Positions 16,001 through 30,448 of a stretch of DNA of 64,000 nucleotides are shown here, in pieces. Position 1 is the stretch's first letter; the number at the start of each line of letters is the position of its first letter. The position numbers were made by a program, and so were the translations under genes. Below the pieces are notes generated by a model, which saw only the letters and a program-made list of their open reading frames with translations, was not told the origin of the DNA and made no database searches. The stretch lies in contig PLWS01000001.1 of assembly GCA_003151115.1 (NCBI GenBank), positions 51,438 through 115,437 on the forward strand. Direction: 5' to 3'. This DNA is from Vulcanimicrobiota bacterium. GTDB lineage: Bacteria > Vulcanimicrobiota > Vulcanimicrobiia > Vulcanimicrobiales > Vulcanimicrobiaceae.

Positions 16001-18318
16001 AAAACGATGCCGGCGTCGATGCCGGGAATGCCTTGACCGGGCATGATCGCACCGAACGCGACGAGCGATCCTCCGCTGACCGGAACGCCGAAGCTCGCGA
16101 GCATGCCGGCGTCGAGCTGCGTGGTGGCGATCGCCATCCGCGATTGCGTGGCGGGAGAGTTCGTGTTGAACGAACCCGCCGCGACGATGTCGCCTCCGGC
16201 CGCGTGCGCTTGTGCCGAATACACGGTCAACACGCCGCGATCGTAAGCCATCGTACCGGAAATGCTTTGCACCGGGATGCCGCGGATCGTCGCGCCCCGC
16301 AGCTGAGCGTTCTGCGCCTGCACGTAGATCTTGCCTTGCGCGATCGCTATTCCAACGGCGCCGTTAATCGAGCCTTGCGCGGGGAAATTGCCGATGAACG
16401 GGCGCAAGCCTTGCAGCGTGCCGGAGTAGTTGCCGCGCGCGATGAGCGCCGAGGGCGAGAACGACCCGCGCCCGTCAAACGTGCCCCACGGCCCGGTCGC
16501 GCGCACCGAGCTCAATTCCGCGGCTTCAAACGGGCCGGCAAACTGCGCGTGAATACTTTTGAACGGTACGCCGGAGATCAGCGCGGGCGCCATGTCGACC
16601 GATCCGCCGATCACGGAGTTCGCCGCCGATCCCGTGCCCGCGATATTCGCTTGCACGATGTGCGCGTCGATGGGCGGCAGTTCGGGAATCTGCACGCCCG
16701 GCAATCCCACGGGCGAGGGCTGGAGCAGCCGCACGTTATCGACCGACGCCCAGAAGGCGCTGTTTCCGTGCGGCCGGTCCAAAGCAAACGCGGCGACGAG
16801 CGTGCCGCCCGCCGCAGTCCGCACCGAGATCGGACCGAACGTGCCGGTACCGTTTTGATCGATGTTGTAAAACCCGTTGATGTCGTTGGGATGGCTCAGC
16901 GAAACCAGATATCCGCGGCCATTGATCTTCAGATCAGTTCCGCTCAGCAAGGCTTCGGCGTTGATCGTTTGATCGGCAACGAGCGCGCCTATGTATGGCA
17001 GCCTGTTCGACGGACCGAACGCGTGGAGGACCAAAGTGGACGCGACCTGACGGCCCAGCTGCATCGTGCCTTGGACGTGCAGACTCATGCCGCTGTACTG
17101 CCCGTGGAACGGCAAGATGACCAAGTCGCTTCCATAGAGTGCGACCATGCCGCGCGGATTATCGATCGGAACGTCCTGATAGTTGAAGCGCTTTCCGTCA
17201 AAGCCGATCCAGAGCAGCGGGTTGTCGATATTGCCTTCGACCAGCGCGTGAATGCGCAGGCCACCGTATACCGGCAGACCTTTGGCGAAGCTCGCGATCT
17301 CTTTGAGGTAACGCAGATCGCCGCGTCCCTCGAATCCGAGCCGGAACTGCGGGTTACGGAAATTGAAGATGCCGCCGGCGATCACGATTGGAATGTGACC
17401 CACGGTGGCGCTCAAACGCCGGGCGGCGAAACCGCCGTCGAAAATGTTGATCGGTCCGTCGAGCTGGCGGATCGGCGAGTCGAGTCCGCGCACTTCCATC
17501 GATCCTTTGGCCAAGTATCCCGCACCGATGATGTGATAGGCGGTCGTCTCGTTCGGCTTGACATCGAAGGCGTACATGCGTACGTCCATGCCGCGCACCA
17601 CGCCGCCGAGCAAACGCGCGGCCGGCGAATCGATGAAGTAATTGCCGATCGTTTGGATGGGAATCGCGCGCACCTGCACGTGGTGCAAAGCGTAGCCTTT
17701 GATGTAGTCGATCGTGCCGACAGCGCGGAACGGCTGCGTGCCGGCGTCTTCGAGATCGCCGGTAGCCACGTAATGCGTTACCTTCACCGTATCGAGGTTG
17801 AGGTCGACGTTGATATGGTCGACGCGCTGCAAGCGGCTTTCCTTATAATAGCGGTACTGATCGATCAGCGAGGCGCGCCCGTCGCGGATGCGCAGCGTCA
17901 TTTGCATCGGGATCGCGTTGGGGTGCGGAAGGTGGGCCGGCCCGGCCGCCGCGCTCGGAGGCAGCGCGACGTTGTACGTGCCGTTCTGATTGTGGATCAG
18001 CGTGATGTATGGACGGTCGATCGTAACGGCCAGCAGCCCAAAACGGTGCTTACTGCCGGGCAGCAGATCGCGCAAGCTGTAAAAGACGTCGACTCGGTTG
18101 GCGTCGAGCACCGTCTGTCCGTGTCGCGAGATGTGCACGCCGACGAAAGCCGCATGGCCGCCGCCGTAGCGCAGATCCTTCATTTGAATGGAATAGCCGG
18201 TGGCAATGCCCGAAAGAGAGGTGATCGCGACGCGCGTCACACTGTTGTGGAAAATCACCACGACCGCAATCGCCGCAAGCACCAGCGCTGCGGCTGCGGT
18301 CCAGATCCCTTTGCGCAA
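13069..18318 (-). CDS. tamB: TamB/AsmA-like translocation and assembly module protein
   Basis: 1749 aa. N-terminal membrane anchor (AAAALVLAAIAVVVIF). Very long beta-rich G/T/A/V body. DUF490-like C-terminus. Immediately upstream of bamA. Confidence 0.8.
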   Translation of the reverse strand: MRKGIWTAAAALVLAAIAVVVIFHNSVTRVAITSLSGIATGYSIQMKDLRYGGGHAAFVGVHISRHGQTVLDANRVDVFYSLRDLLPGSKHRFGLLAVTIDRPYITLIHNQNGTYNVALPPSAAAGPAHLPHPNAIPMQMTLRIRDGRASLIDQYRYYKESRLQRVDHINVDLNLDTVKVTHYVATGDLEDAGTQPFRAVGTIDYIKGYALHHVQVRAIPIQTIGNYFIDSPAARLLGGVVRGMDVRMYAFDVKPNETTAYHIIGAGYLAKGSMEVRGLDSPIRQLDGPINIFDGGFAARRLSATVGHIPIVIAGGIFNFRNPQFRLGFEGRGDLRYLKEIASFAKGLPVYGGLRIHALVEGNIDNPLLWIGFDGKRFNYQDVPIDNPRGMVALYGSDLVILPFHGQYSGMSLHVQGTMQLGRQVASTLVLHAFGPSNRLPYIGALVADQTINAEALLSGTDLKINGRGYLVSLSHPNDINGFYNIDQNGTGTFGPISVRTAAGGTLVAAFALDRPHGNSAFWASVDNVRLLQPSPVGLPGVQIPELPPIDAHIVQANIAGTGSAANSVIGGSVDMAPALISGVPFKSIHAQFAGPFEAAELSSVRATGPWGTFDGRGSFSPSALIARGNYSGTLQGLRPFIGNFPAQGSINGAVGIAIAQGKIYVQAQNAQLRGATIRGIPVQSISGTMAYDRGVLTVYSAQAHAAGGDIVAAGSFNTNSPATQSRMAIATTQLDAGMLASFGVPVSGGSLVAFGAIMPGQGIPGIDAGIVLQNGTAAGYGPFSASAEIGVANDTLQVRNGLAALGTTFADVNGAIDGLTSGSPQYDLRAQVPVGNISEVARIAHVPTYRADGSFVADVNVGGTGSSPSITGSVGVPVGEINGLGFSDAAGQLSASRGGVAVRNGTVQVVTTKANFSATVARGETAFSLQSRKADLSDFNDYFDTGDTLAGHGNLNLAFAQYDGLVFTSGDVGIANLRYRRFPIGDTYAHWTSLRNILQLNVAVGGSHGRLRAAGTVAFAHTGDLRSLITRSRYQISGTLSDIDLGTWLPAFGFPQAPITGRINGTVAVSGAYPHLGLTGNAAILQGTLGPLPIERGEVAVRSSGDRIDVTRLTLALPALDASGSGSFGFAPKSPIDLTVHAVTTDLPRLVAQATKKHIDVTGQLETTLHLNGTFSNPAISAAVAGTNVNAYGIVMPSLAGQVALRGNDLVVRNAEFSFVKGSAAIAGSLPIQLSPFTFGPPSAPVSMDFLANAVDLSSFSAFLGNDTKLGGTLSGHMGVSGTVGNPLILGQLAVAGGSYSSAIETTPITKTVAQITFLGTHATLDRLQASPGTGTLTGSGRLDFGGGIHGGPLGYSIAVKTTRAQLNLPQYGTYTLTSAATLARVPGRLATLTGTASLTDSTVPFAAFLKFGGTPATPGEAPSGPPFNLGFNLAITAGKNVRVRGGGAGIFGLDIAGEGSVLLAGTLLQPTLSGEFNSAGGTLTYIDHAFKVRTGTVTFDPANGVIPDIYAVGTTHVTNPDPNGARNPTGSADITVTVNGPVTSPHLAFQSDPAGYTQQQIIALLLPFGNLIGPIQFSDTGIPLPPGQLNGAPPPGTSTGLLPPNLYVQRENGVLTIGQEAFNIFNAQFVSGLLAPIENALGTNLGLNDVNLTLDYTGNFGVNFRRLLAKNFYALYGTTLGVPVRQTVGFVYQPNTFTSAQFTMFMQQGPTPLFQSATQALQTNQRAATGQALQGTNGFTFLYQRLF

Positions 18319-18379
18319 AGGTCCCTCCGCGGCCAGTTATACCCCTAACGTTGGCGGAAGCCCCGCAATCGCGGGGGAC

Positions 18380-21094
<2,715 letters not shown>

Positions 21095-21095
<1 letters not shown>

Positions 21096-22201
21096 CAGCT
21101 TGGGCCCGGAATCACGCGCGCGTCGCGGATCTCGTAGACTGATGCCAAGGAGAGCGCGCCCGGCAGCTGCGTAGCCGTGATGAACGCCTGTTCGAACTCG
21201 CCGACGCCTTCCAAAAACGCGCGCGCACGCTGCGGATCGAGCTCGGAAAGAACGTCATCCAGCAGCAAGAGCGGGGCTTCGCCCGAGCGTTCGTGCATGA
21301 CGGCGTATTCGCCAACCTTGACCGCAAGTACCGCCGTCCGCTGCTGGCCTTGCGAACCGAATGCCGCGAGCGAACGGCCATCCAAATCGAGCGCGAGATC
21401 GTCGCGGTGCGGGCCGACCAGTGCGACCCGGCGCAGCCGTTCCATCTCGGCGCCGGCGCGCAAGCGCTCTTCAAAGCTCCCCGCGATCGAGTCTTCGGTT
21501 TCGGCTTCGAACTGCACGTTCGGACGGTACGTCAATTCCAAGTGCTCGCGGCCGTCGCTCCAGCGAGCGTGGACTTTCGACGCCGCCGCTCCCAACGCGC
21601 GCACGAAATGATTGCGCGCAATCATCAGCGCCGTCCCCGAGGTCACGAGCGTCTCGTCGTAGATCTTCAACAGCTCGGGATCCGGCGCGGCCTCGGCGCG
21701 CAGCAGCGCGGTCTTTTGCGAGAGCGCCTTCTGGTAGCGCGCCAACTCGCGGTAGTACGACTTCTGTTCCTGCGCGAGGGCGCTGTTCAGGAACGACCGC
21801 CTCACCGACGGCGGCCCGTCGACCAGATGCAGATCGGCCGGCACGAAGCTCACGACGCGCAAACTCCCGAGAAAGGTCGCGTAACGCACACTGCGGCCGT
21901 TCACGGTGTAGAGCTTGCGCGAGCCGCGCGGCGTTGCCGTCAGCGTGCAGCCCAGACGTATGGCGCCGGCTTTTACGTGCGCTTCGCCGGAAATGGTCGC
22001 GAGTTCGAAGCCGTCGCGGATCAGATCGCGCTCGCGGTTCGTTCGAAAAGATTTGCCCGTTCCAAGCAGCGAGATCGCCTCGAGCAGATTACTCTTGCCT
22101 TGCGCGTTGGCTCCCACGAAAACGTTCAATCCGGGAGCCGGCTGCAGCTCGAGGTGCGCGTAGTTGCGCACGTTCGAGAGCGTCAGCGAATCCAGCCTAA
22201 T
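21095..22201 (-). CDS. recF: DNA replication/repair protein RecF (start proposed at a non-canonical ATT)
   Basis: ORF track starts at GTG 22171 (MRNYAHLELQPAPGLNVFVGANAQGKSNLLEAI..). The in-frame upstream codons read I-R-L-D-S-L-T-L-S-N-V-RNY, which is the conserved RecF N-terminus. ATT 22201..22199 overlaps the TAG stop of the upstream gene. Confidence 0.9.
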
Positions 22202-23681
22202 AGTCGGCGGGTTCGGTCGGAGGCTTCTGATGCATGATAGCGGTCACCGTCAGCGTGGTCGAAATTGGTTTAAAGACCGACGGCGACTGCGTGAAATCGA
22301 ACATGTCGTCGAGCGCGTCAGCGCGCGCGTCGGCGGTATACGTTTGAATTGAGGTCAGCCCGAAGATCTTTTCGATAAAGTGCAGGCTGCTGGCGACTTC
22401 GTGCTGCGTGTGCGACACATAGTTGTGCTTCGAGTACGGCGACACCACGATCAGTATGGTGCGAATGCCGAGGCCCTCATACGCGCCGGTCCGCGCGTCG
22501 GCGACTTGCGGCGGCACGACGTGATCGTACCAGCCGCCCCAGTCGTCGTACATGATGATGATGGCCGTGTTGTTCCAATACTTGCTCTTGCCGACGGCAT
22601 TGATGATGTTGGCAACCCATTGCGGGCCGGTCGTGCTGAGCGAGCCGGCGTGATCGGAGTTCAAGAACGACGGCATGACCCAGGAAACTTGCGGCAGATT
22701 GCCGGCAGCGAGGTCGGTAAAGAACGTGCTCTCCGGTGATTTGACGTTGCGCACCCAATCGGCGCCGAATCTGACCGGATAGATGACGTCGAAGGCCGAC
22801 CAGATGTCGCCCAGATTCAATCCGATCGTCGGGCTGTAAAATCCCCACGAAATGCCCTTGTTGTCGAGTTGCGTTGCGATCGTGCTGTATGAAAAGCATG
22901 GGAACGGCCCCGGTAATTCCATTCCAAACTGCGTCGGAAACGGAAAGTACGCCGGCGGCGGGTTGACGAGCTGCAAAACAGCGGTCGTGGTCGCGGCCGG
23001 TGCGTCGCATCCCCACGTTTGGTTGAAGTCGCTGGGAATTTCTGCCACGTGGCCGGATTCGCCGGCGATCATGTATTGATGCGAAACGTAGCTCGGACCG
23101 TTGTTGGAGGGAAAGAAATTGTCGCCGATCGCGTACTGCGCTGCCATATCCCAATAGGGCTGCACTTCAGTTCTCGGCACGTATGAGTAAGCCAGCGGAA
23201 AACTGTTGCCGTCCGGATTTTTGCCCGGGTCCGTCGATCCCGATGGGTAGAAATGCGTCCCGTAGACCCAGCAGGACGGATCGTTCAGGTAATCCTTTGA
23301 GGGACAAGGGCATATTGCGCTGACGCCGCAAAAACCGAAGATCTCCTTGTCGAAACCGTCCATCTTCCCACCATCGTAGTTGGCCAGGAATTGAATCCGC
23401 AGGTGATTGATGTCAACGGGATTGGCAAGACTGACCGGCACCAGCGTGCGCGTGATGCCCTTTGAATCGACTCCCGAGCTCACGGTGTTCGCTCCGGGAT
23501 AGCCTTGGAAGACGCCGTCGAACGTCCGGTTCTCTTGCATGATCACGACGACGTGTTGAATGAGCGGGCCGGCCGGCGTCGAGGTCGGAATCACAGGCCC
23601 CGGAAGGCCGGTGCCACCGCCGTTGCAAGCGGTCAGCGTCGTTACGGCCACCGCCGTTGCAAGGGCGAGACAGCGCCGCAT
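22197..23681 (-). CDS. Secreted phosphoesterase-family lipoprotein (phospholipase C / AcpA-like)
   Basis: ORF 22197..23690; I prefer ATG 23681, giving MRRCLALATAVAVTTLTAC (lipobox). HVVVIMQENRTFDGVFQGYPG is the phosphoesterase-family signature. Also ..MYDDWGGWYDHV.. Confidence 0.8.
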   Translation of the reverse strand: MRRCLALATAVAVTTLTACNGGGTGLPGPVIPTSTPAGPLIQHVVVIMQENRTFDGVFQGYPGANTVSSGVDSKGITRTLVPVSLANPVDINHLRIQFLANYDGGKMDGFDKEIFGFCGVSAICPCPSKDYLNDPSCWVYGTHFYPSGSTDPGKNPDGNSFPLAYSYVPRTEVQPYWDMAAQYAIGDNFFPSNNGPSYVSHQYMIAGESGHVAEIPSDFNQTWGCDAPAATTTAVLQLVNPPPAYFPFPTQFGMELPGPFPCFSYSTIATQLDNKGISWGFYSPTIGLNLGDIWSAFDVIYPVRFGADWVRNVKSPESTFFTDLAAGNLPQVSWVMPSFLNSDHAGSLSTTGPQWVANIINAVGKSKYWNNTAIIIMYDDWGGWYDHVVPPQVADARTGAYEGLGIRTILIVVSPYSKHNYVSHTQHEVASSLHFIEKIFGLTSIQTYTADARADALDDMFDFTQSPSVFKPISTTLTVTAIMHQKPPTEPADY

Positions 23682-23689
23682 GATGCCCA

Positions 23690-24805
23690 CTATTGCCGCA
23701 GCGGCATCAAGACGTACAGTTGCTGCGCACCCTCCGTCGGCTCGACCGGTTTGATCGCTGCCGGCGAAAGCGGTCCCAGGAATTCCATCACGGTTTGCGC
23801 GCTCTCGATGTGATTCAAAATCTCCACGAGATAACGCGCATTGAAGGCGATCGTTAAATCTTCGCCTTGCTGTTCGACCTCGAGTTCTTCGTACGCGTTG
23901 CCCGAAACGTCAGAGCTTGCAGTGACGATCAGCGTTTGATTTGAAACGGCCAACTTTACCATGCTCGCGCGATCGCCGGCGACCAGTTCGGCGCGGCGCA
24001 GCGCGGCGATCAAACTCGGCGTGCTGACGGTCATCGAGCGATCGAACTTTGCCGGGATCACTTGTCCGTAGTTCGGGTATTGTCCATCCACGAGCCGCAC
24101 CGTAATCGATGCGTCACCCGCGGAAAACATCAGCTGGTTGCTTTGCGCGCCGAGCGCGGTGACGTCGACGAATTCCGCGCCGCCCAGATTGCGTGCAGCC
24201 TCGATGAGCGCTCGCGAAGGCACGATGTATTTTTCGCTGCCGGAGATTCCGCTCTCGAGAGTCGTTTGATACTTTGCCAGGCGATAGCCGTCGGTGGCGA
24301 CCAGAGTGATCGAGTCGCCTTCGATTTCGAGCAGCGTCCCCATCAGGACGGCGCCGCGCGCTTCTTCGCTCGAGGCCGCAAAGATCGCGGCATTCACGCC
24401 GTCGCGAAAGCGTTTGGCCGAGATCCGGAAGTTCTGACCTTTTTGAGCCGCGGGAAGCGGCGGATACTCTTCGGCCGGCAAGGCGTGGAAATCGTAACTG
24501 CTGCGCTCGTATTTAACGCTGGCGCGGGTCGGCGTTCCGGTCAATTCCATGAGTCCGGCTTGCAGGTTGCCTAAATAGCTGCTGAACAGTTTGGCCGGAA
24601 CCGTCACGCTGCCCGATTCGCTGACCTCGGCCGGAAAGGCGTGCTCGAGCGTCACTTCGAGATCGGTCGCGCGCACCGAGATTTTGCCCCCGTCTGCGCT
24701 AAGCAGCACATTGGACAAGATCGGAACGGTCGTATGCGCGTTGACGACCTTGCTGGCGGCGCCGACTGCGCCGGAGATATCTTTCGTGTTACAGGTGAAC
24801 TTCAT
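23690..24805 (-). CDS. dnaN: DNA polymerase III beta sliding clamp
   Basis: 371 aa. MKFTCNTKDISGAVGAASKVVNAHTTVPILSNVLLSADGGKISVRATDLEV.., ending ..YVLMPLRQ. Confidence 0.96.
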   Translation of the reverse strand: MKFTCNTKDISGAVGAASKVVNAHTTVPILSNVLLSADGGKISVRATDLEVTLEHAFPAEVSESGSVTVPAKLFSSYLGNLQAGLMELTGTPTRASVKYERSSYDFHALPAEEYPPLPAAQKGQNFRISAKRFRDGVNAAIFAASSEEARGAVLMGTLLEIEGDSITLVATDGYRLAKYQTTLESGISGSEKYIVPSRALIEAARNLGGAEFVDVTALGAQSNQLMFSAGDASITVRLVDGQYPNYGQVIPAKFDRSMTVSTPSLIAALRRAELVAGDRASMVKLAVSNQTLIVTASSDVSGNAYEELEVEQQGEDLTIAFNARYLVEILNHIESAQTVMEFLGPLSPAAIKPVEPTEGAQQLYVLMPLRQ

Positions 24806-24833: not shown

Positions 24834-24870
24834 CTTTATTATAAAAAGATCTAATAGTATTAGTAGTAAG
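24834..24870. promoter_or_regulatory. AT-rich stretch in the dnaA-dnaN spacer, candidate DNA-unwinding element
   Basis: tttattataaaaagatctaatagtattagtagtaag is by far the most AT-rich run I saw in this high-GC window. It lies between dnaA and dnaN, as incC/DUE does in Bacillus-type origins. Confidence 0.45.
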
Positions 24871-25048: not shown

Positions 25049-26419
25049 CTAGTCGGTCTGGCAGAGCGCCAGGAGCGAGCGGATCTTGTTGCGGTAGGCT
25101 TCGTCGCGCTGCATTTGGTCCTTCACTTTATCCCGCGCGTACATCACCGTCGTGTGGTCCTTCTTGTTGAACTCTCGCGCGATGTGGGGCAGAGAGCAGT
25201 CGGTCAGCTCGGTGCAGACGAACATCGCGATCTGGCGCGGTCCGGCCACCCGCTGGTCGCGCCGGTGGTTGTCCATCTCCTTGATAGTCAACCCGTGCGC
25301 CTTGGCGATCTTGTCTTTGATGGTATCGATGGTCACGCGCCGCAGCGGCATCTGGGCGACCGCGTTCTTGAGCACTTCGGCTGCGAGGTCGACCGTGATG
25401 GAAGACTTCGTTAGCGACGAAAACGCGACCACGCGAATTAGCGCGCCTTCGAGCTCGCGGATGTTGGACGGAATGACTTTCGCGATGTACGACGTCACTT
25501 CGTCGGGCACGGGAATCTTCTCCGACTCCGCCTTCTTGCGCAGAATCGCTTCGCGCGTTTCCAAATCGGGCGGCTGAATATCGGTGAGCAGTCCCCATTC
25601 GAACCGCGAGCGCAGACGATTTTCCAGCGTCTGAATCTCTTTGGGCGGCCGATCGCTGGAGATGACGAGCTGGCGCCCGGATTCATGCAGCGCGTTGAAT
25701 GTGTGGAAGAACTCTTCTTGCGTGCCTTCCTTGCCTTCCAAGAATTGGATGTCGTCGATCAGCAACACGTCGACCAAACGGTACTTGTTGCGAAACTCGA
25801 GCGTCTTGTTGTTTTGCACCGCGATGATGAACTCGTTCGTGAATTTTTCGCTCGACACGTACACGACGTTGGCGTCGGGAATATCTTGCAGCACGCGATG
25901 ACCGATCGCGTGCATGAGGTGCGTTTTGCCCAACCCCACGCCGCCGTAGAGGAAGAGCGGATTGTACGCGCGGGCCGGAGCGGCTGCGACCGCCTGCGCG
26001 GCTGCGTGCGCGAACCGGTTGGAGTTGCCGATGACGAACTCTTCAAACGTGTAGCGCGTATTCAGATTGCCGGGGCGGAAGTCGGTTTGCAGGCGGGCGC
26101 CGCCGGTAGCGGGCGCTGCGGCCCCCTCGGGAGCGGGCGTTTCGCCGGGTTGTTCGACGATCACGAACTGCAGCTCGAAAACGGTGCCGAATGTTTCGGC
26201 GAGCGCTTCGACGATCTGCACTTTGAGGCGGTTCTCAACCCACTCGCGGGCAAATGTGTTCTGGACCGCCAGCAGCAGTTCGTTTCCGTTGAGGGAAACC
26301 AGCCGGAGCGGCTTGATCCACATCTCGTAGATCGGTTTGGAGAATTTTCGTTCTAGCGCTTGAAGTGCGGATTGCCACAGTTCATTGGAAATATCGGTGT
26401 TTCCAGCCGCAAGCGCCAT
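25049..26419 (-). CDS. dnaA: Chromosomal replication initiator DnaA
   Basis: ORF 25049..26467 (TTG); I prefer ATG 26419 ([16 protein letters not shown]..). AAA+ motifs [16 protein letters not shown] and [14 protein letters not shown]-terminal DnaA-box-binding domain ..[12 protein letters not shown].. Confidence 0.96.
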
Positions 26420-26548
26420 CCTAATTCCGTCCCGTCGTCGTCTAGTTCGGAACTCCGCCACCGACAAAAGTCTAACGGCGGGGTCCCTTCTTGGAGGCGC
26501 ACAGGTTGGCGCTATCGGGGTCGTATCCTGCGGTAAATTAAGAGATTC

Positions 26549-26726
26549 TTATCCACTTATCCACAGGTGTAGAACCATCGATTTTTCGGGTGAAAACACA
26601 CATATTCCACCGCTGCGCCACATGTATTGACAAGCGGAAAAATGCCCGCCGTGCCGGGCTTTTCGGCGCAAGTCTAGCAAGCGTCCGCGAAGCGCTGTCC
26701 ACAGCCTTTTCCACAAGTGTGGAGAG
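26549..26726. promoter_or_regulatory. Cluster of DnaA-box-like 9-mers upstream of dnaA (oriC candidate)
   Basis: Tandem TTATCCAC-TTATCCACA at 26549-26565 (the second is a perfect consensus). CTGTCCACA at 26695-26703. TTTTCCACA at 26707-26715. Inverted CTCTCCACA at 26718-26726. All genes to the left are on the minus strand and all to the right on the plus strand. Confidence 0.65.
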
Positions 26727-26753
26727 CGGCCGTTTCTCAAGGTAGTGGTCCCT

Positions 26754-26837
26754 TTTGCTTGACGACCCCAATCGGGAGCTCTATACTAGTCCGCTTTACG
26801 AGAAAGGTCGGGATTTTACGTACGAAAGATTGACAAA
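26754..26837 (+). repeat. Direct repeat, left copy (84 bp), carrying a TTGACG-17-TATACT promoter
   Basis: 79/84 identical, ungapped, to 30123-30206 (hand alignment). -35 at 26759-26764, -10 at 26782-26787. A second TTGACA at 26830-26835. An extra shared 11-mer ccgtttctcaa lies just upstream (26730-26740 and 30110-30120). Confidence 0.9.
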
Positions 26838-26867
26838 TGGCCTGGGTCGGTGTGGTAAGCTGGGGCT

Positions 26868-27032
26868 ATGAAGGAACCGGATCGCAAGCGTCCCGAGGAC
26901 GCAAACCAGTCCGCCGCGAGGGTGGTCCGAGAAGCCACAGGCGGGTGGTATTGCCCCGCTTGTGAGCCGGAGCGCCTTCCGTCCTCAGAACAAGGCAAGC
27001 CCCACAAGCATACCTGCGGACGCGAAAACTAG
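26868..27032 (+). CDS. Hypothetical 54-aa Zn-ribbon-like protein (below the ORF-track size cutoff)
   Basis: Hand translation: MKEPDRKRPEDANQSAARVVREATGGWYCPACEPERLPSSEQGKPHKHTCGREN*. Has CPAC plus HKHTC. Third-position G+C is roughly two-thirds. Lies about 80 nt downstream of the left-repeat promoter. Confidence 0.4.
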   Translation: MKEPDRKRPEDANQSAARVVREATGGWYCPACEPERLPSSEQGKPHKHTCGREN

Positions 27033-27053
27033 CTGAAAGACCCAGAATCGCCT

Positions 27054-27194
27054 TTGGAGGGAACGCTCCGAGGTTGCGGGTCGGTAGCGGGTATCGTCCT
27101 CGGCGTCGTCCTCGCCGTCGTCCTCGGCGTGATCGTAATCCTGGCGCTGCTTTTAAACCAACCCTACTGCCGGCATCACCCCTGCTTACCATAA
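27054..27194 (+). CDS. Hypothetical 46-aa single-TM peptide (below the ORF-track size cutoff)
   Basis: TTG start within ttTGGAGGg. Hand translation: (M)EGTLRGCGSVAGIVLGVVLAVVLGVIVILALLLNQPYCRHHPCLP*. The hydrophobic core is encoded by a 3 x 12-bp tandem repeat (27095-27130). Third-position G+C is high. Confidence 0.35.
   Translation: MEGTLRGCGSVAGIVLGVVLAVVLGVIVILALLLNQPYCRHHPCLP
27095..27130 (+). repeat. 3 x 12-bp tandem repeat cgtcctcg(g/c)cgt
   Basis: cgtcctcggcgt / cgtcctcgccgt / cgtcctcggcgt, read directly. In frame it encodes the VLGV/VLAV units of the putative TM peptide. Confidence 0.9.
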
Positions 27195-27199
27195 CGGTC

Positions 27200-28228
27200 T
27201 TAGCCGTCATCCTCGGGCACTTGTTCTTTGCCCCACTCTAGCAACGGAAGATTTAGGTTCTCGGCGTGACGCGGAAGATATTTGTCCATCGACGTTTTGA
27301 AGTCGTCCCAATTCTCTGAGCCCCGCATGATCGTGACCACGGTCGCAAGGTGTTGGTTCAAAGCCGGGACGCCGAAATCTTCAGTCAGAAATTGCGTGTG
27401 CTTGTGACGCCGATGCTTCCCGACTTTCGGGTTGAGCTGTTCGAGTTTCGGTAGAATCCCCGGCGTGAGCCGGGCGTAAACATAATCCTTCGTGTAGTGC
27501 GCGACTATACCGGGCGGGTTAATTGAGCGGCCTTTCCAGGTCCATCCGCGCAACCGGAAGATTTGTTCGTAGAACTCGTCGGGAAAAAGTTTAGTCCATC
27601 GCGCCAATTCCTCTCGCAGAAAGCGTTGCAGTAGCGTTTGCAACAGCTCTGCGCGTGTATATCCGGTCGCCTCGTCAATCAAGGCGATAATCCCGACTTT
27701 GGCTACTGCTCGAACGATGACATCGGCCCTGATTGCAACGTCGGCGTAAACGTCGTCCAGCGTTTTGTTATCGCGAGAGCTTAGTACGGCGTTACAAACA
27801 TCGACAAGCAGCGGGGCCTTGTATGTAAAAGCGAGCGGCCCGCCTCGCGGTTGCCGCATGCGAAGCGGATTTCGCAAGGCCGCGACAGTTTCAGCGGACA
27901 TATACGCTTCGAGGTGCGCGTGGGTGATAAAGCGGTCCATCTCACCGCCGCGTGACGTGATTCCCAGGGCGTCGAAGAAACCGCGCTGCGAGAGTACGCG
28001 TTCGGTGTCTTCGAGGACGTAGCAAGGGACCTTAACTCCGCCGATAAGCAGCGGGTGTTCCTCGTCGCCATACTCCGCCACACGGATACTCGGGTCCCAA
28101 CGAGCGGCCGCGCCGCGCTTCCCGATCTCGCTACGTCGCTTGGCCGGTAGAGCTTTAGCCCTGGCTTCGCCACCACGCGCTCGGCCTGGTTTCTGCGCGT
28201 CGGAATCTTGAGGCATATCTTTATCCAT
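27200..28228 (-). CDS. P63C-domain-like phage protein
   Basis: ORF 27200..28447 trimmed to ATG 28228 (MDKDMPQDSD..), 342 aa. N-terminal basic motif ARGGEARAKALPAKRRSEIGKRGAAARW. Core ..IALIDEATGY..LFPDEFYEQIFRLRGW..YARLTPGILPKLEQLNP..HTQFLTEDFG..L..HL..V..IMR.. matches my memory of the P63C family. Confidence 0.55.
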   Translation of the reverse strand: MDKDMPQDSDAQKPGRARGGEARAKALPAKRRSEIGKRGAAARWDPSIRVAEYGDEEHPLLIGGVKVPCYVLEDTERVLSQRGFFDALGITSRGGEMDRFITHAHLEAYMSAETVAALRNPLRMRQPRGGPLAFTYKAPLLVDVCNAVLSSRDNKTLDDVYADVAIRADVIVRAVAKVGIIALIDEATGYTRAELLQTLLQRFLREELARWTKLFPDEFYEQIFRLRGWTWKGRSINPPGIVAHYTKDYVYARLTPGILPKLEQLNPKVGKHRRHKHTQFLTEDFGVPALNQHLATVVTIMRGSENWDDFKTSMDKYLPRHAENLNLPLLEWGKEQVPEDDG

Positions 28229-28264
28229 GCTTGCATTGTACCACGGATATGCTATAATGCAAGC
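28229..28264. promoter_or_regulatory. Perfect 9-bp inverted repeat (GCTTGCATT..AATGCAAGC) overlapping a TTGCAT-16-TATAAT promoter
   Basis: Arms at 28229-28237 and 28256-28264. -35 TTGCAT at 28231-28236 and -10 TATAAT at 28253-28258, facing the transposase gene. Abuts the ATG of the divergent P63C gene. Confidence 0.55.
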
Positions 28265-28337
28265 ATACCGCAAAGCGATGGTTGCAAAGTACGGGGCAAA
28301 TTGGCCCGTTTCCTGCGCAACGAAAGGGTAACAGGCC

Positions 28338-29204
28338 ATGAACCGCCTCCCGCTTGAAGACCGCGTCCGCGCCCTAGCCGCCCTGGTAGAGGGCAATTCC
28401 ATTCGCGGTACGGCCCGGATGGTCGGCCTGGACAAGAAAACGGTCATGCGGCTCTTGGAGGAGGTCGGAGACGCCTGCGACCTTTACCAGCACGACAACC
28501 TGCGCAACCTAAGCTGCGTTCGCGTCCAATGCGATGAGGTATGGTCCTTCTGCCACGCTAAAGAGCGCAACATTCGACCCGACAAGAAACGCCGGGATAT
28601 TGGCGACGTTTGGACCTGGACGGCAATAGACGCCAATACGAAGCTTATTATCACTTGGCACGTTGGGAAGCGGACGCATTGGGATGCGCGTCGTTTCATC
28701 CACGATCTCTCGCGACGCATCAAGTCTTTCGTGCAAATCACGACGGACGGCCTCAATATGTATATTGACCCTATCATAAAAGAATTCAAGTATCGCGCCG
28801 ACTACGGTCAGGATGTAAAAGTCTTTGGGCATGAGCCGATCCCGGAGGTAGCGAGGGGTCAAGATTCACGCTACAGCCCGCCGAAGCTCCTGGAAATGCG
28901 ACGGACGCAAGTGTGGGGCGTTCCCGATCTAGGTACTACCTCAACGGCCTATGTCGAGCGGCAGAATCTTACCATGCGTATGTCCATGCGCCGCTTCACG
29001 CGCTTGACCAATGCGTTCTCGAAAAAGATTATCAACCACCAGCGAGCGTTGGCGCTTCACTTCATGCACTACAACTTTTGCCGCGTTCATCAAACGCTTA
29101 AGACGACGCCAGCAATAAAACACGGCCTTACGGATCGCATTTGGACGTTGCATGACTTGGCGCGATTGCCAGAATTGATACGCGGTGAGGGAGCCGCCGC
29201 TTAA
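28338..29204 (+). CDS. IS1-family DDE transposase with an N-terminal HTH
   Basis: 288 aa. ..LVEGNSIRGTARMVGLDKKTVMRLL.. (HTH), CDEVWSF, TWTAIDANTKL, QITTDGLNMY, STAYVERQNLTMRMSMRRFTRLTNAFSKKIINHQRALALHFMHYNFCRVHQTLKTTPA. I could not find terminal inverted repeats by eye. Confidence 0.75.
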   Translation: MNRLPLEDRVRALAALVEGNSIRGTARMVGLDKKTVMRLLEEVGDACDLYQHDNLRNLSCVRVQCDEVWSFCHAKERNIRPDKKRRDIGDVWTWTAIDANTKLIITWHVGKRTHWDARRFIHDLSRRIKSFVQITTDGLNMYIDPIIKEFKYRADYGQDVKVFGHEPIPEVARGQDSRYSPPKLLEMRRTQVWGVPDLGTTSTAYVERQNLTMRMSMRRFTRLTNAFSKKIINHQRALALHFMHYNFCRVHQTLKTTPAIKHGLTDRIWTLHDLARLPELIRGEGAAA

Positions 29205-29211
29205 AAGAATG

Positions 29212-29232
29212 AGGGAGCGTAGTTACCGCTCC
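29212..29232 (+). terminator. Stem-loop after the transposase gene (GGGAGCG-tagttac-CGCTCCC)
   Basis: Perfect 7-bp GC-rich stem, 8 nt after the stop. No clear U-tract. A second hairpin, TCCCC-ttgc-GGGGA, lies at 29253-29266 between the convergent genes. Confidence 0.4.
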
Positions 29233-29329
29233 CGCATCCGACTGCCCGTGCTATCCCCTTGCGGGGAAGTGCCAGTGGGCCCTTATCACTCGGCCAGAAC
29301 CTTCAGTCTCAGTATAGCTGAACATTAGC

Positions 29330-30049
29330 TTATGTGCAAGCGTATTGGTAAAATTCTGTTGTTCCATATCGGAATAACGGAAATTCGCTTCGCAGTTTGT
29401 TCGAGATAAGCTTGTATGACCTGTCGTCCCCGCGCTCATATTTCCGAAAGATTGCCCACGCTATATAATCGCTGACTTGCAACATGTGGTGCGAATTCGC
29501 CGGGTGAAAATGGAGAAAGTACTTGATATTCTCGTCGGCTAACACCGATTTTAGACCGGCAATAAAAGCGTCTTTCTTGCCACGAAGCTCAAAGGATGCC
29601 GCGAAGATATGCAAGGTGTCATCCCGTAGTTCGTCGGCCTTTCCTATCCTGCGCAGAATGCCGAGCGCCAAGCCGCGGAACACTAACCCGTAAAATGCTC
29701 GTCGCTCTTGTCGCTTCGGGTGCGTTTTGTTCTTTTGAACCACGACAGAGTAGGCGTTAAACTGAAGCGCCGAGATGAGATCAAAAACTTCGTCCCGCAC
29801 AGCTTGCGGGTCTTCCGTGCAGTGGAACCCCGCAAATTGGTGCGGTCGTGTTATCCGCAGAGTCGCCGGATCGCGGCGCAAGATGTCGTGTCGCAAAGCG
29901 AGCAGCGGAAGGCACCCTTGAGAGGGGTCTTCGGTCGCCACTGCCGCTAGGATGAAATACTTGGTGTCGTTGGGACCAAAATCGAATGTCCCGGACTCAT
30001 CAATGAAGATGTAGATATTGCGACCCGCCATCCCGGACGGTTCGGACAA
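29330..30049 (-). CDS. DUF3800-family protein
   Basis: 239 aa. N-terminal IYIFIDESGTFDF and C-terminal ..HHMLQVSDYIAWAIFRKYERGD match the two hallmark DUF3800 motifs (DESG, Q-x-[AS]-D). Lowest-GC gene in the window. An alternative ATG is at 30031. Confidence 0.65.
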   Translation of the reverse strand: MSEPSGMAGRNIYIFIDESGTFDFGPNDTKYFILAAVATEDPSQGCLPLLALRHDILRRDPATLRITRPHQFAGFHCTEDPQAVRDEVFDLISALQFNAYSVVVQKNKTHPKRQERRAFYGLVFRGLALGILRRIGKADELRDDTLHIFAASFELRGKKDAFIAGLKSVLADENIKYFLHFHPANSHHMLQVSDYIAWAIFRKYERGDDRSYKLISNKLRSEFPLFRYGTTEFYQYACT

Positions 30050-30122
30050 GCGGACGAGATTAGCCTGTTGCCCCTCGAATCATCACCTAATTCTATAAGT
30101 CGTACAGTACCGTTTCTCAATC

Positions 30123-30206
30123 TTTGCTTGACGGCCCCAATCGGGAGCTCTATACTAGTCCGCTTTGCGAGAAAGGCTGGAATTTTACGTACGAAAGATT
30201 GACAAA
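30123..30206 (+). repeat. Direct repeat, right copy (84 bp), carrying a TTGACG-17-TATACT promoter
   Basis: 79/84 identical to 26754-26837. -35 at 30128-30133, -10 at 30151-30156, TTGACA at 30199-30204. Confidence 0.9.
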
Positions 30207-30228: not shown

Positions 30229-30258
30229 TTGACGCCTCCGCCGTGCTAGACCTATACT
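30229..30258 (+). promoter_or_regulatory. Proximal rpmH promoter, TTGACG-18-TATACT
   Basis: -35 at 30229-30234, -10 at 30253-30258. Shares gcTTGACG and CTATACTAG with the two repeat-borne promoters. AGGAG RBS at 30298-30302. Confidence 0.6.
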
Positions 30259-30313: not shown

Positions 30314-30448
30314 ATGAAGCGGACCTTCCAACCGCATAACCGCCGGCGCAAACGCGTCCACGGCTTTCGCGAGCGTATGTCCACCAAGAACGGCCGCCGC
30401 GTCATCGCGGCCCGCCGCAGAAAGGGCCGCAAGCGCCTCAGCGTCTGA
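30314..30448 (+). CDS. rpmH: 50S ribosomal protein L34
   Basis: Below the ORF-track cutoff. Hand translation: [44 protein letters not shown]. The stop overlaps the rnpA ATG (TGATG). Confidence 0.97.

Follow-up and report, generated by a model that had tools for sequence, protein, structure and literature searches.

The junction between the divergent genes dnaA and rpmH is interrupted by a 3,371-bp island in a 64,000-nucleotide stretch of the genome of a Vulcanimicrobiota bacterium (assembly GCA_003151115.1, contig PLWS01000001.1), referred to here as the window. With a probability of roughly 0.8, this island is a cargo-carrying IS1-family transposon of an Eremiobacterota/Vulcanimicrobiota clade that prefers the edge of the DnaA-box cluster upstream of dnaA, and the left one of the two 84-bp direct repeats near its borders is a secondary feature. 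The element would have arrived by DDE transposition, duplicating 9 bp of its target (GTTTCTCAA). From left to right, it would comprise the tip of a left terminal inverted repeat (IRL), a promoter with a small open reading frame (ORF), a gene for a P63C-domain protein on the minus strand, a transposase gene on the plus strand, a DUF3800 gene on the minus strand, and a degenerate right terminal inverted repeat (IRR). The clade would preferentially insert, with nucleotide precision, at the outer edge of the DnaA-box cluster and deliver defense-type cargo there.

The ends of the element are defined by its inverted repeats (IRs), by the duplicated target, and by relatives in which the site is empty. 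The IRL tip GGTAGTGGTCCCTTTTG, whose 17 nt recur without mismatch in the IRs of the elements at loci L107, L111, L189, L196, and L202, occurs only once in the window, at 26741. The reverse complement of the IRR reads GGTACTGTACGACTTATAGAATTAGG and starts with GGTACTGT; the last bases of the island, ...CAGTACC, end at 30111. The IRR shares 17 of 22 positions with GGTACTGTCCTAGTTTGAATTAG, which is the IRL sequence in the L101 and L200 elements and also stands at the end of a mini-element in L195. The same 9-mer lies immediately outside both ends. The initial annotation had proposed that foreign DNA splits the dnaA-rpmH junction beside the DnaA-box cluster, a view that is upheld here, and the empty sites it had suggested looking for exist in five close relatives (L081, L084, L085, L086, and L087). 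These have 410-550 bp between dnaA and rpmH without an insert, a ribosomal protein L34 identical to that of the window, and a DnaA that is 95-97% identical, except that the L087 contig does not contain DnaA. The L087 sequence aligns to the window until 26740 and then again from 30110. The IRs, the GTTTCTCAA duplication, and the empty sites together identify the island as a 3,371-bp IS1-family transposon that entered through an ordinary transposition event, 14 bp past the outermost DnaA box and 17 bp upstream of the -35 hexamer of P2, the upstream promoter of rpmH.

Related elements have the same architecture. The L107 element carries the same divergent pair of P63C and transposase genes, 25-nt IRs (24 of 25 positions complementary) that start with GGTAGTGGTCCCTTTTG, and a 9-bp duplication. 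About 40 more family members, among the metagenome matches listed, have IRs of the form GGTAGTGG(G/T)(T/C)C..GTTTGAA and mostly 7-9-bp duplications. They measure 2.1-4.8 kb and therefore carry passenger genes.

The transposase is encoded by a single ORF with an N-terminal helix-turn-helix (HTH). It scores 30.4 bits against the Pfam family DDE_Tnp_IS1 (gathering cut-off 24.1), in a match that covers residues 202-239 only. At least 8000 homologs were found, many of which are labeled 'IS1 family transposase' by their source databases. Residues D66, D137, E207, and R214 are invariant in an alignment of 36 transposase sequences; the first three presumably form the catalytic triad, and R214 would be the basic residue that follows the glutamate at a distance of about seven positions. 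As in IS1, the IRs start with GGT and the target duplications are 8-9 bp long, both in the window element and in relatives with clean IRs. The classical IS1 organization, an insA/insB' frameshift pair in about 0.77 kb, is absent: the window element has one ORF of 288 aa, a length of 3,371 bp, and passenger genes, and thus is not a classical IS1. At most, it belongs to a single-ORF, cargo-carrying branch of the IS1 family. No gene for a tyrosine or serine recombinase is present among the ORFs of 26741-30111 or its flanks, nor is there any TnsA, TnsB, TnsC, or TniQ/TnsD; the Pfam matches of the island are limited to P63C, the IS1-type DDE transposase, and DUF3800. The initial annotation was thus right that the island lacks an integrase, yet it overlooked the DDE transposase.

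Table 1. Features of the dnaA-rpmH region, in coordinates of the window.
Feature	Position	Strand	Evidence
dnaA	25049-26419	minus	Pfam
Outermost inverted DnaA-box pair of the dnaA-upstream/oriC cluster, TTTTCCACA ag TGTGGAGAG	26707-26726		DnaA-box scan
Target-site duplication GTTTCTCAA, 9 bp, left copy	26732-26740		Same 9-mer as right copy; limit of the L087 alignment
IS1-family transposon, 3,371 bp	26741-30111		IRs, target duplication, and empty sites
IRL tip GGTAGTGGTCCCTTTTG	26741-26757	+	17-nt identity to IRs of related elements
Left 84-bp copy: promoter P1 and leader of ~50 nt, inside the element, facing small54	26754-26837	+	Repeat comparison; promoter scan
small54, diverged copy of the IRL-proximal small ORF of the family, 54 aa	26868-27032	+	hmmsearch with small-ORF profile, E = 2e-7
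P63C-domain protein, 343 aa, cargo or accessory	27200-28231	minus	PF10546, E = 6e-28; full-length phrog_2384, E = 2e-93
17-nt palindrome ATGCTTGCATT...AATGCAAGCAT around TATAAT	28227-28266		Inverted repeat in the P63C/transposase divergent intergenic region
IS1-family DDE transposase, single ORF, 288 aa, N-terminal HTH	28338-29204	+	Pfam DDE_Tnp_IS1; NCBIfam transpos_IS1
DUF3800 protein, defense-associated cargo	29330-30049	minus	PF12686, E = 1e-10; PADLOC DUF3800_VII, E = 5.5e-20
Degenerate IRR	30086-30111	minus	Reverse complement GGTACTGTACGACTTATAGAATTAGG
Target-site duplication GTTTCTCAA, 9 bp, right copy	30112-30120		Same 9-mer as left copy
Right 84-bp copy: resident promoter P2 and leader, native chromosomal sequence	30123-30206	+	Empty-site relatives
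P3, proximal rpmH promoter, TTGACG-18-TATACT	30229-30258	+	Consensus promoter scan
rpmH (ribosomal protein L34), followed by rnpA-yidD-yidC	30314-30448	+	Pfam

A recurrent association with the outermost DnaA box sets this clade apart. Ten relatives of the transposase (62-70% identical) were chosen solely for their long contigs. Seven of them (P0006, P0007, P0010, P0014, P0020, P0040, and P0054) lie upstream of dnaA, opposite rpmH or, where the gene order differs, opposite rpmA. The remaining three (P0021, P0080, and P0111) lie elsewhere and, in a neighbor-joining tree, form one derived clade with the L111 element, which is not located at the replication origin (oriC) either. A metagenome scan with the transposase alignment listed 80 further family members, mostly about 50% identical and on short contigs, which are not an unbiased census; three of these 80 lie about 70-135 nt from the start of rpmH. 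A DnaA scan of the genome collection, whose peptide patterns were too specific, returned one contig of the same phylum (L001) and was reused as a negative control. No transposase homolog was present at any of 80 dnaA loci of other phyla.

The position of these insertions is fixed to the nucleotide. The DnaA-box pair, with the pattern TCCACAnnTGTGGA, occurs once per locus and lies upstream of dnaA in every locus inspected. At seven loci (L097, L101, L110, L189, L193, L195, and L200), which correspond to six of the long-contig relatives upstream of dnaA and one short metagenome contig, the IR tip is found exactly 3 nt past the outermost box of the pair. The 8-bp duplication at these sites covers the final five bases of the box and three more. 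Either the IRL or the IRR can face the box, and the sister transposases of L101 and L200 are oppositely oriented. Wherever both ends were located (L101, L189, L193, L195, and L200), the duplications are intact direct repeats. The fixed offset, the two orientations, and the intact duplications point to several independent insertions.

Some of these sites may have been used repeatedly. In L193 (5993-9600), three elements are arranged head to tail with the duplication GAAAGGGC, the unit in the middle being non-autonomous and 742 bp long. L195 (5330-8889) contains an array of two elements with the duplication GAAAGCCG, one of which is a mini-element of 39 bp from IR to IR. Adjacent elements in both arrays are spaced by the same 8-bp duplication, as expected if each new insertion uses the box-side site that the previous one regenerated. 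With each insertion restoring this site, successive elements would stack outward and leave oriC undamaged.

The recurrence and exact offset of the association are observed facts; they probably arise because the transposition machinery chooses its target, and not only from selection against harmful insertions. The cues could be the sequence of the box, the DnaA bound to it, or the likeness of the box to the GTGG-containing ends of the element. On balance, the comparison of loci somewhat favors the view that the outermost DnaA box serves the clade as an attachment site precise to the nucleotide, perhaps through the reading of DNA to which DnaA is bound. Relative to the canonical site, the window element is displaced outward by 11 nt, about one turn of the helix, an offset that would be compatible with recognition of a single helical face. 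The L190 element also lies off register, 29 nt from the box and beside an apparent remnant of an old repeat.

Two further observations concern the target. In L111 (3880-3930), the right target duplication of one family member abuts the left repeat tip of a different family member, which suggests that the family tends to insert next to existing ends. The TCCACAnnTGTGGA pair is found exactly once, 40-300 nt upstream of dnaA, in L008, L023, L043, L046, L060, L065, L068, L071, L072, L078, and L079. Its presence in many unrelated phyla makes it a widespread feature of dnaA promoters or origins that is not specific to transposon hosts.

Several points weigh against the proposed origin-directed transposon. 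The IRR of the window element is degenerate, so that the element may no longer be mobile. Its transposase scores 59 bits against NCBIfam transpos_IS1, under the equivalog cut-off of 100. The window element sits 14 nt from the box instead of the canonical 3 nt and is therefore an off-register member. The sample of relatives is small, with ten long contigs and 80 metagenome loci that are mostly about 50% identical and on short contigs. The transposases located at oriC are 63-72% identical, which resembles the divergence of DnaA (72-73%), so that vertical inheritance could explain part of the oriC association. Selection might also have sharpened the exact offset, by removing insertions that harm oriC or neighboring promoters. 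Lastly, no intermediate allele was found for the copying of the 84-bp segment discussed below.

The composition of the island agrees with a foreign origin, as the initial annotation had noted from a few lines of sequence. The G+C content of the island is 55.4% and that of the remainder of the window is 62.5%; none of 539 same-size windows outside the island is as low. The G+C content at third codon positions (GC3) is 0.60-0.67 in the island genes (0.69 in the short small54 ORF) and 0.73-0.82 in dnaA, dnaN, rnpA, and yidC. The direct repeats flanking the island were likewise recomputed as described, matching at 79 of 84 positions without gaps, and each contains TTGACG-17-TATACT, at 26759-26787 (P1; -35 at 26759-26764, -10 at 26782-26787) and at 30128-30156 (P2). 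With just two copies in the 64 kb and none expected by chance, the 84-bp repeat is not a multi-copy genomic repeat. The 11-mer noticed upstream of both copies, CCGTTTCTCAA, is also present, and it is composed of the 9-bp target duplication and two chance bases. At the left copy, 12 additional nucleotides (GGTAGTGGTCCC) intervene between the 11-mer and the repeat; these are part of the IRL tip.

The two copies differ in origin. In the relatives with empty sites, TCTTTGCTTGACGGCC starts at the position of the right copy, a G occupies repeat position 12 in the alignable part, as in the right copy, and all of them have the P2 sequence CCGTTTCTCAATCTTTGCTTGACGGCC at the corresponding position. The right copy is therefore native, and the left copy is internal to the element. 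The opposite order, in which the left copy is native and the element was inserted after it, needs a target duplication of about 110 bp and an independent 12-nt IR scar, and is unparsimonious. The initial annotation had suggested that the element duplicated the rpmH promoter or carried in a copy of its own, one copy driving rpmH and the other the island genes. The repeats are indeed promoter-like and face rpmH and the island, respectively; the right copy, however, provides only the extra upstream promoter P2, since rpmH has its own proximal promoter, P3. P3 is kept in L081 and L085-L087, and L084 has a P2/P3 hybrid promoter in which the -10 is retained. P3 itself is not a paralog of the 84-bp repeat: only the two hexamers agree and the spacers are unrelated, which reflects the promoter consensus and not a duplication.

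The interval between P2 and P3 (30207-30228 in the window; L081:9790-9930, L084:9895-9930, L087:377-714) is highly variable, with flanks that are 92-96% identical. It is missing in L084, with its single hybrid promoter, and measures about 70 nt in the window, about 107 nt in L081, L085, and L086, and about 300 nt in L087. The L087 interval holds a Cys/His-rich ORF of 51 aa with a ribosome-binding site. Homology of this ORF to the small ORF of the elements is unsupported (E = 0.026).

The left copy appears to be a recent acquisition. It is missing at the equivalent position in related elements, and the left ends of L107 and L111 are unrelated beyond the IR, which shows that the left end of such elements does not normally include the 84-nt segment. 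In relatives, the small ORF typically starts about 65 nt from the IR tip; in the window this distance is 128 nt, and the left copy accounts for part of the difference. The segment has therefore been added to the promoter region of the element or has replaced sequence there. The left copy is 94% identical to P2 of the window, from which the corresponding regions of L081 and L087 have diverged well beyond that; in L087, identity to the window is 81% over the first 54 nt, with nothing further at blastn sensitivity. Being closer to the window P2 than these are, the left copy was recently copied from the resident sequence of this or a very close lineage. The IR ends with TTTTG and the native sequence begins with TCTTTG, so that the two share a TTTG microhomology. 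After insertion, a tandem duplication followed by a microhomology deletion at TTTG, or a double template switch, may have given rise to the left copy; either would yield exactly the junction seen. A post-insertion origin through microhomology seems most likely. Similar internal copies of flanking DNA were not found in other oriC-located elements. Folding of the repeat leader gave no signal of RNA structure (z-scores from -0.7 to +1.1), and the idea of a structured RNA was rejected.

As to function, the left copy, which directly follows the IRL tip, would occupy the place where related elements have their own small-ORF promoter. A strong, consensus-like P1 would now adjoin the DnaA boxes and read into the element, presumably driving the small ORF, and rpmH would retain P2 and P3.

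One rival explanation starts from a circular or linear DNA that already contained the rpmH-upstream promoter and entered the chromosome at the resident one through homologous (Campbell-type) recombination, so that the repeat would stem from the mode of integration and not from a later rearrangement. The 5 differences in 84 positions would be expected for a slightly different source strain, and the dnaA of L092 has diverged from that of the window by about 6% at the DNA level, yet L092 is 100% identical to the window from 26492 across the whole island. After such an integration, the left copy should be preceded by native sequence, but what lies between it and the 9-bp duplication is the IR tip. 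It also leaves unexplained why this duplication flanks the IRL and IRR exactly, and L092 may be a chimeric assembly. Campbell-type integration is accordingly regarded as unlikely. The mosaic of L092 deserves mention in its own right: over 25130-30122 of the window it has 90 mismatches in dnaA and the upstream sequence to 26491, then none over 3,631 nt. This suggests that the island spreads between strains by recombination in its flanks, or it may reflect a chimeric metagenome assembly. The contigs L082-L096, L092 among them, were obtained from Stordalen Mire samples.

Another explanation is that the transposase is an old, vertically inherited resident upstream of dnaA, which relatives without it lost by deletion, and that no targeting is involved. 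The comparable divergence of transposases and DnaA agrees with this, as does the spread of the oriC-located copies over the base of the clade. Several features speak against long residence. The empty sites of five near-identical relatives are scar-free, and the duplications are intact wherever both ends are visible (L101, L189, L193, L195, and L200). Elements are found in both orientations, even with the sister transposases of L101 and L200, each carries different cargo, and some form tandem arrays with one shared duplication. The G+C content and GC3 of the island are also below those of the host. Taken together, these observations make purely vertical inheritance quite improbable.

The initial annotation had compared the 84-bp repeats to attL and attR, the sites of a site-specific integrative element that would integrate and excise by recombination between them. 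The repeats are long, direct, and 94% identical, they bracket most of the island, and the contigs of some assemblies break at them, although short-read assemblers break contigs at repeats anyway. The comparison fails because the repeats are not at the junctions. The empty-site alignment breaks at 26740/26741, at the IR tip and 13 nt to the left of the left repeat, and resumes at 30110, 13 nt before the right repeat, rather than at the repeat borders 26754 and 30123. The real ends are the IRL tip at 26741 and the degenerate right end at 30111, with their 9-bp duplication. The sole mobility gene encodes a DDE transposase and not a tyrosine or serine recombinase, there is no tRNA gene, and related elements have IRs and 8-9-bp duplications without an 84-bp repeat. 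Integration through such sites is therefore given very little weight in comparison with the transposon. Finally, although the window comes from a metagenome-assembled genome, which the contig of L082 (GCA_003167295.1, contig PMTQ01000001.1) matches, it is scarcely credible that the repeats are an assembly duplication or chimera, a concern raised by the initial annotation, because the copies are non-identical and lie within different unique sequence, and the identical structure with the same five mismatches recurs in at least nine contigs of independent assemblies (NCBI, JGI, ENA, and Logan) from several samples and pipelines.

The passenger genes vary between elements and are largely of defense type or candidates for it. 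DUF3800 proteins are encoded in the window, L190, and L195. The other cargo includes a type II methyltransferase, a BglII-like nuclease, and DCD in L189, PDC-S42 and SocA_Panacea in L200, NYN/HEC-09 in L193, and methylase-nuclease fusions in L107 and L196. Among these, PDC-S42, MTase_II, and HEC-09/NYN are PADLOC matches; BglII, DCD, SocA_Panacea, and MTase-REase are Pfam domains. The cargo may act in defense. The P63C protein has no PADLOC match, and no retron reverse transcriptase partner of the DUF3800 protein is present in the window.

The P63C gene is divergent from the transposase gene, a pairing also found in L107, L143, L171, and L174. The palindrome in the intergenic region between the two is probably an operator with a promoter. 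The small ORF belongs to the element as well, as indicated by its match to a profile that was derived from small ORFs in related elements. In these relatives it encodes about 80 aa, with the consensus KRPRDxNQLAxxIVxEATGE...GGLKGGKARAxxLSxxxRKEIAKKAAxARWKK. The N-terminal 25 aa of small54 match the family (KRPxDxNQxAxxVVxEATGG), and its C-terminus deviates (CPxC...HxC). The motif GG(L)KGGxARAxxLSxxxRxxIAxxAAxARW is found both at the end of the family small ORF (for instance, L185:73-315) and at the start of P63C (28100-28231 in the window), and the family small ORF matches positions 7-38 of phrog_2384, a family of unassigned function. The small ORF and P63C thus seem to have a short module in common, possibly a DNA-binding one.

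Several features of the surrounding DNA were noted in addition. In L085, which has an empty dnaA-rpmH site, a different small island (16822-19800) separates rsmG (gidB) from the gene for the CCA/poly(A) polymerase. Its content is an IS1595-family transposase, a further DUF3800 gene, and a number of small ORFs; this junction has no insert in the window. Further DnaA boxes of the window are located at 26549 and 26557. An AT-rich stretch, ctctttattataaaaagatctaatagtattagtagtaagg, in the dnaA-dnaN intergenic region (24835-24870) adjoins a DnaA box at about 24991 and could be the DNA-unwinding element of a bipartite origin. No tRNA, tmRNA, or known RNA family was found in or near the repeats, save a sub-threshold Rfam match to AsdA inside dnaA (25868-25948, strand opposite dnaA; 30.8 bits, where the gathering score is 52; E = 0.003). 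AsdA is an antisense RNA of dnaA mRNA. At 22197-23690, between dnaN and recF, lies a gene of the phosphoesterase family (PF04185) whose 497-aa product has a lipoprotein-like signal, and it is present in all close relatives too; the gene cluster around it is otherwise classical, dnaA-dnaN-recF-(dciA)-gyrB. Downstream of rpmH, the identity of rnpA is confirmed by Pfam.

If the association reflects targeting, the DnaA-box edge would constitute a new class of chromosomal safe site for transposons, beside attTn7 and tRNA genes, and the clade would offer a simple, single-protein system for studying how a transposase reads an initiator-bound origin. It would also account for the broken state of the otherwise highly conserved dnaA-rpmH junction in many Eremiobacterota genomes, and would provide a route for defense genes to build up where gene dosage is highest and replication earliest. 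A literature search on transposons that target DnaA boxes or replication origins, and on passenger genes in the IS1 family, returned nothing relevant, and this may be the first report of a transposon family targeted to the bacterial replication origin. The 84-bp repeat is an example of a transposon end that acquired a resident host promoter, and it cautions against equating long direct repeats that surround an island with att sites.

Insertion sequences with cargo are well known. The nearest known elements are presumably the single-ORF IS1-family members with passengers, the ISMhu11-type group of ISfinder. Like the IS1 family, the window element has a transposase that matches DDE_Tnp_IS1, here over part of its length, IRs that start with GGT, and 8-9-bp duplications, and some IS1-family members also carry extra genes. 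Classical IS1, with its insA and insB' joined by a programmed frameshift, is about 0.77 kb long; the window element instead has one long ORF without an InsA/InsB' pair, is 3.4 kb long with three or four extra genes, and carries a conserved small ORF just inside the IRL. The nucleotide-precise preference of its clade for the DnaA-box edge was not found described for IS1 or other insertion sequence families in the literature searched.

Among integrative islands bounded by attL and attR are the tRNA-linked islands and SCCmec, which resides at rlmH near oriC. These are similar to the island in the window in that a foreign block of low G+C content with accessory or defense genes lies near the origin between direct repeats. 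They differ in that here no tyrosine or serine recombinase is present, repeats and recombination junctions do not coincide, and IRs with a short duplication form the ends. Elements of the IS30, IS21, and IS3 families target their own ends or palindromes, a behavior known as IR targeting. The head-to-tail arrays and the insertions that abut existing ends in L111, L193, and L195 recall this behavior, and the DnaA-box pair is a palindrome with GTGG, as found in the IR tips. However, the spacing of the box pair is not like that of an IR-IR junction, and the primary target is host sequence rather than a copy of the element. Tn7 inserts at attTn7, downstream of glmS, and needs TnsABC and the target selector TnsD/TniQ. 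Both Tn7 and the present clade are transposons with a conserved safe site linked to an essential gene, where they deliver cargo and form arrays by repeated use. In contrast to Tn7, the clade described here has a single IS1-type DDE transposase without a TnsC- or TniQ-like gene, and its landmark is a DnaA box at oriC rather than the end of a gene.

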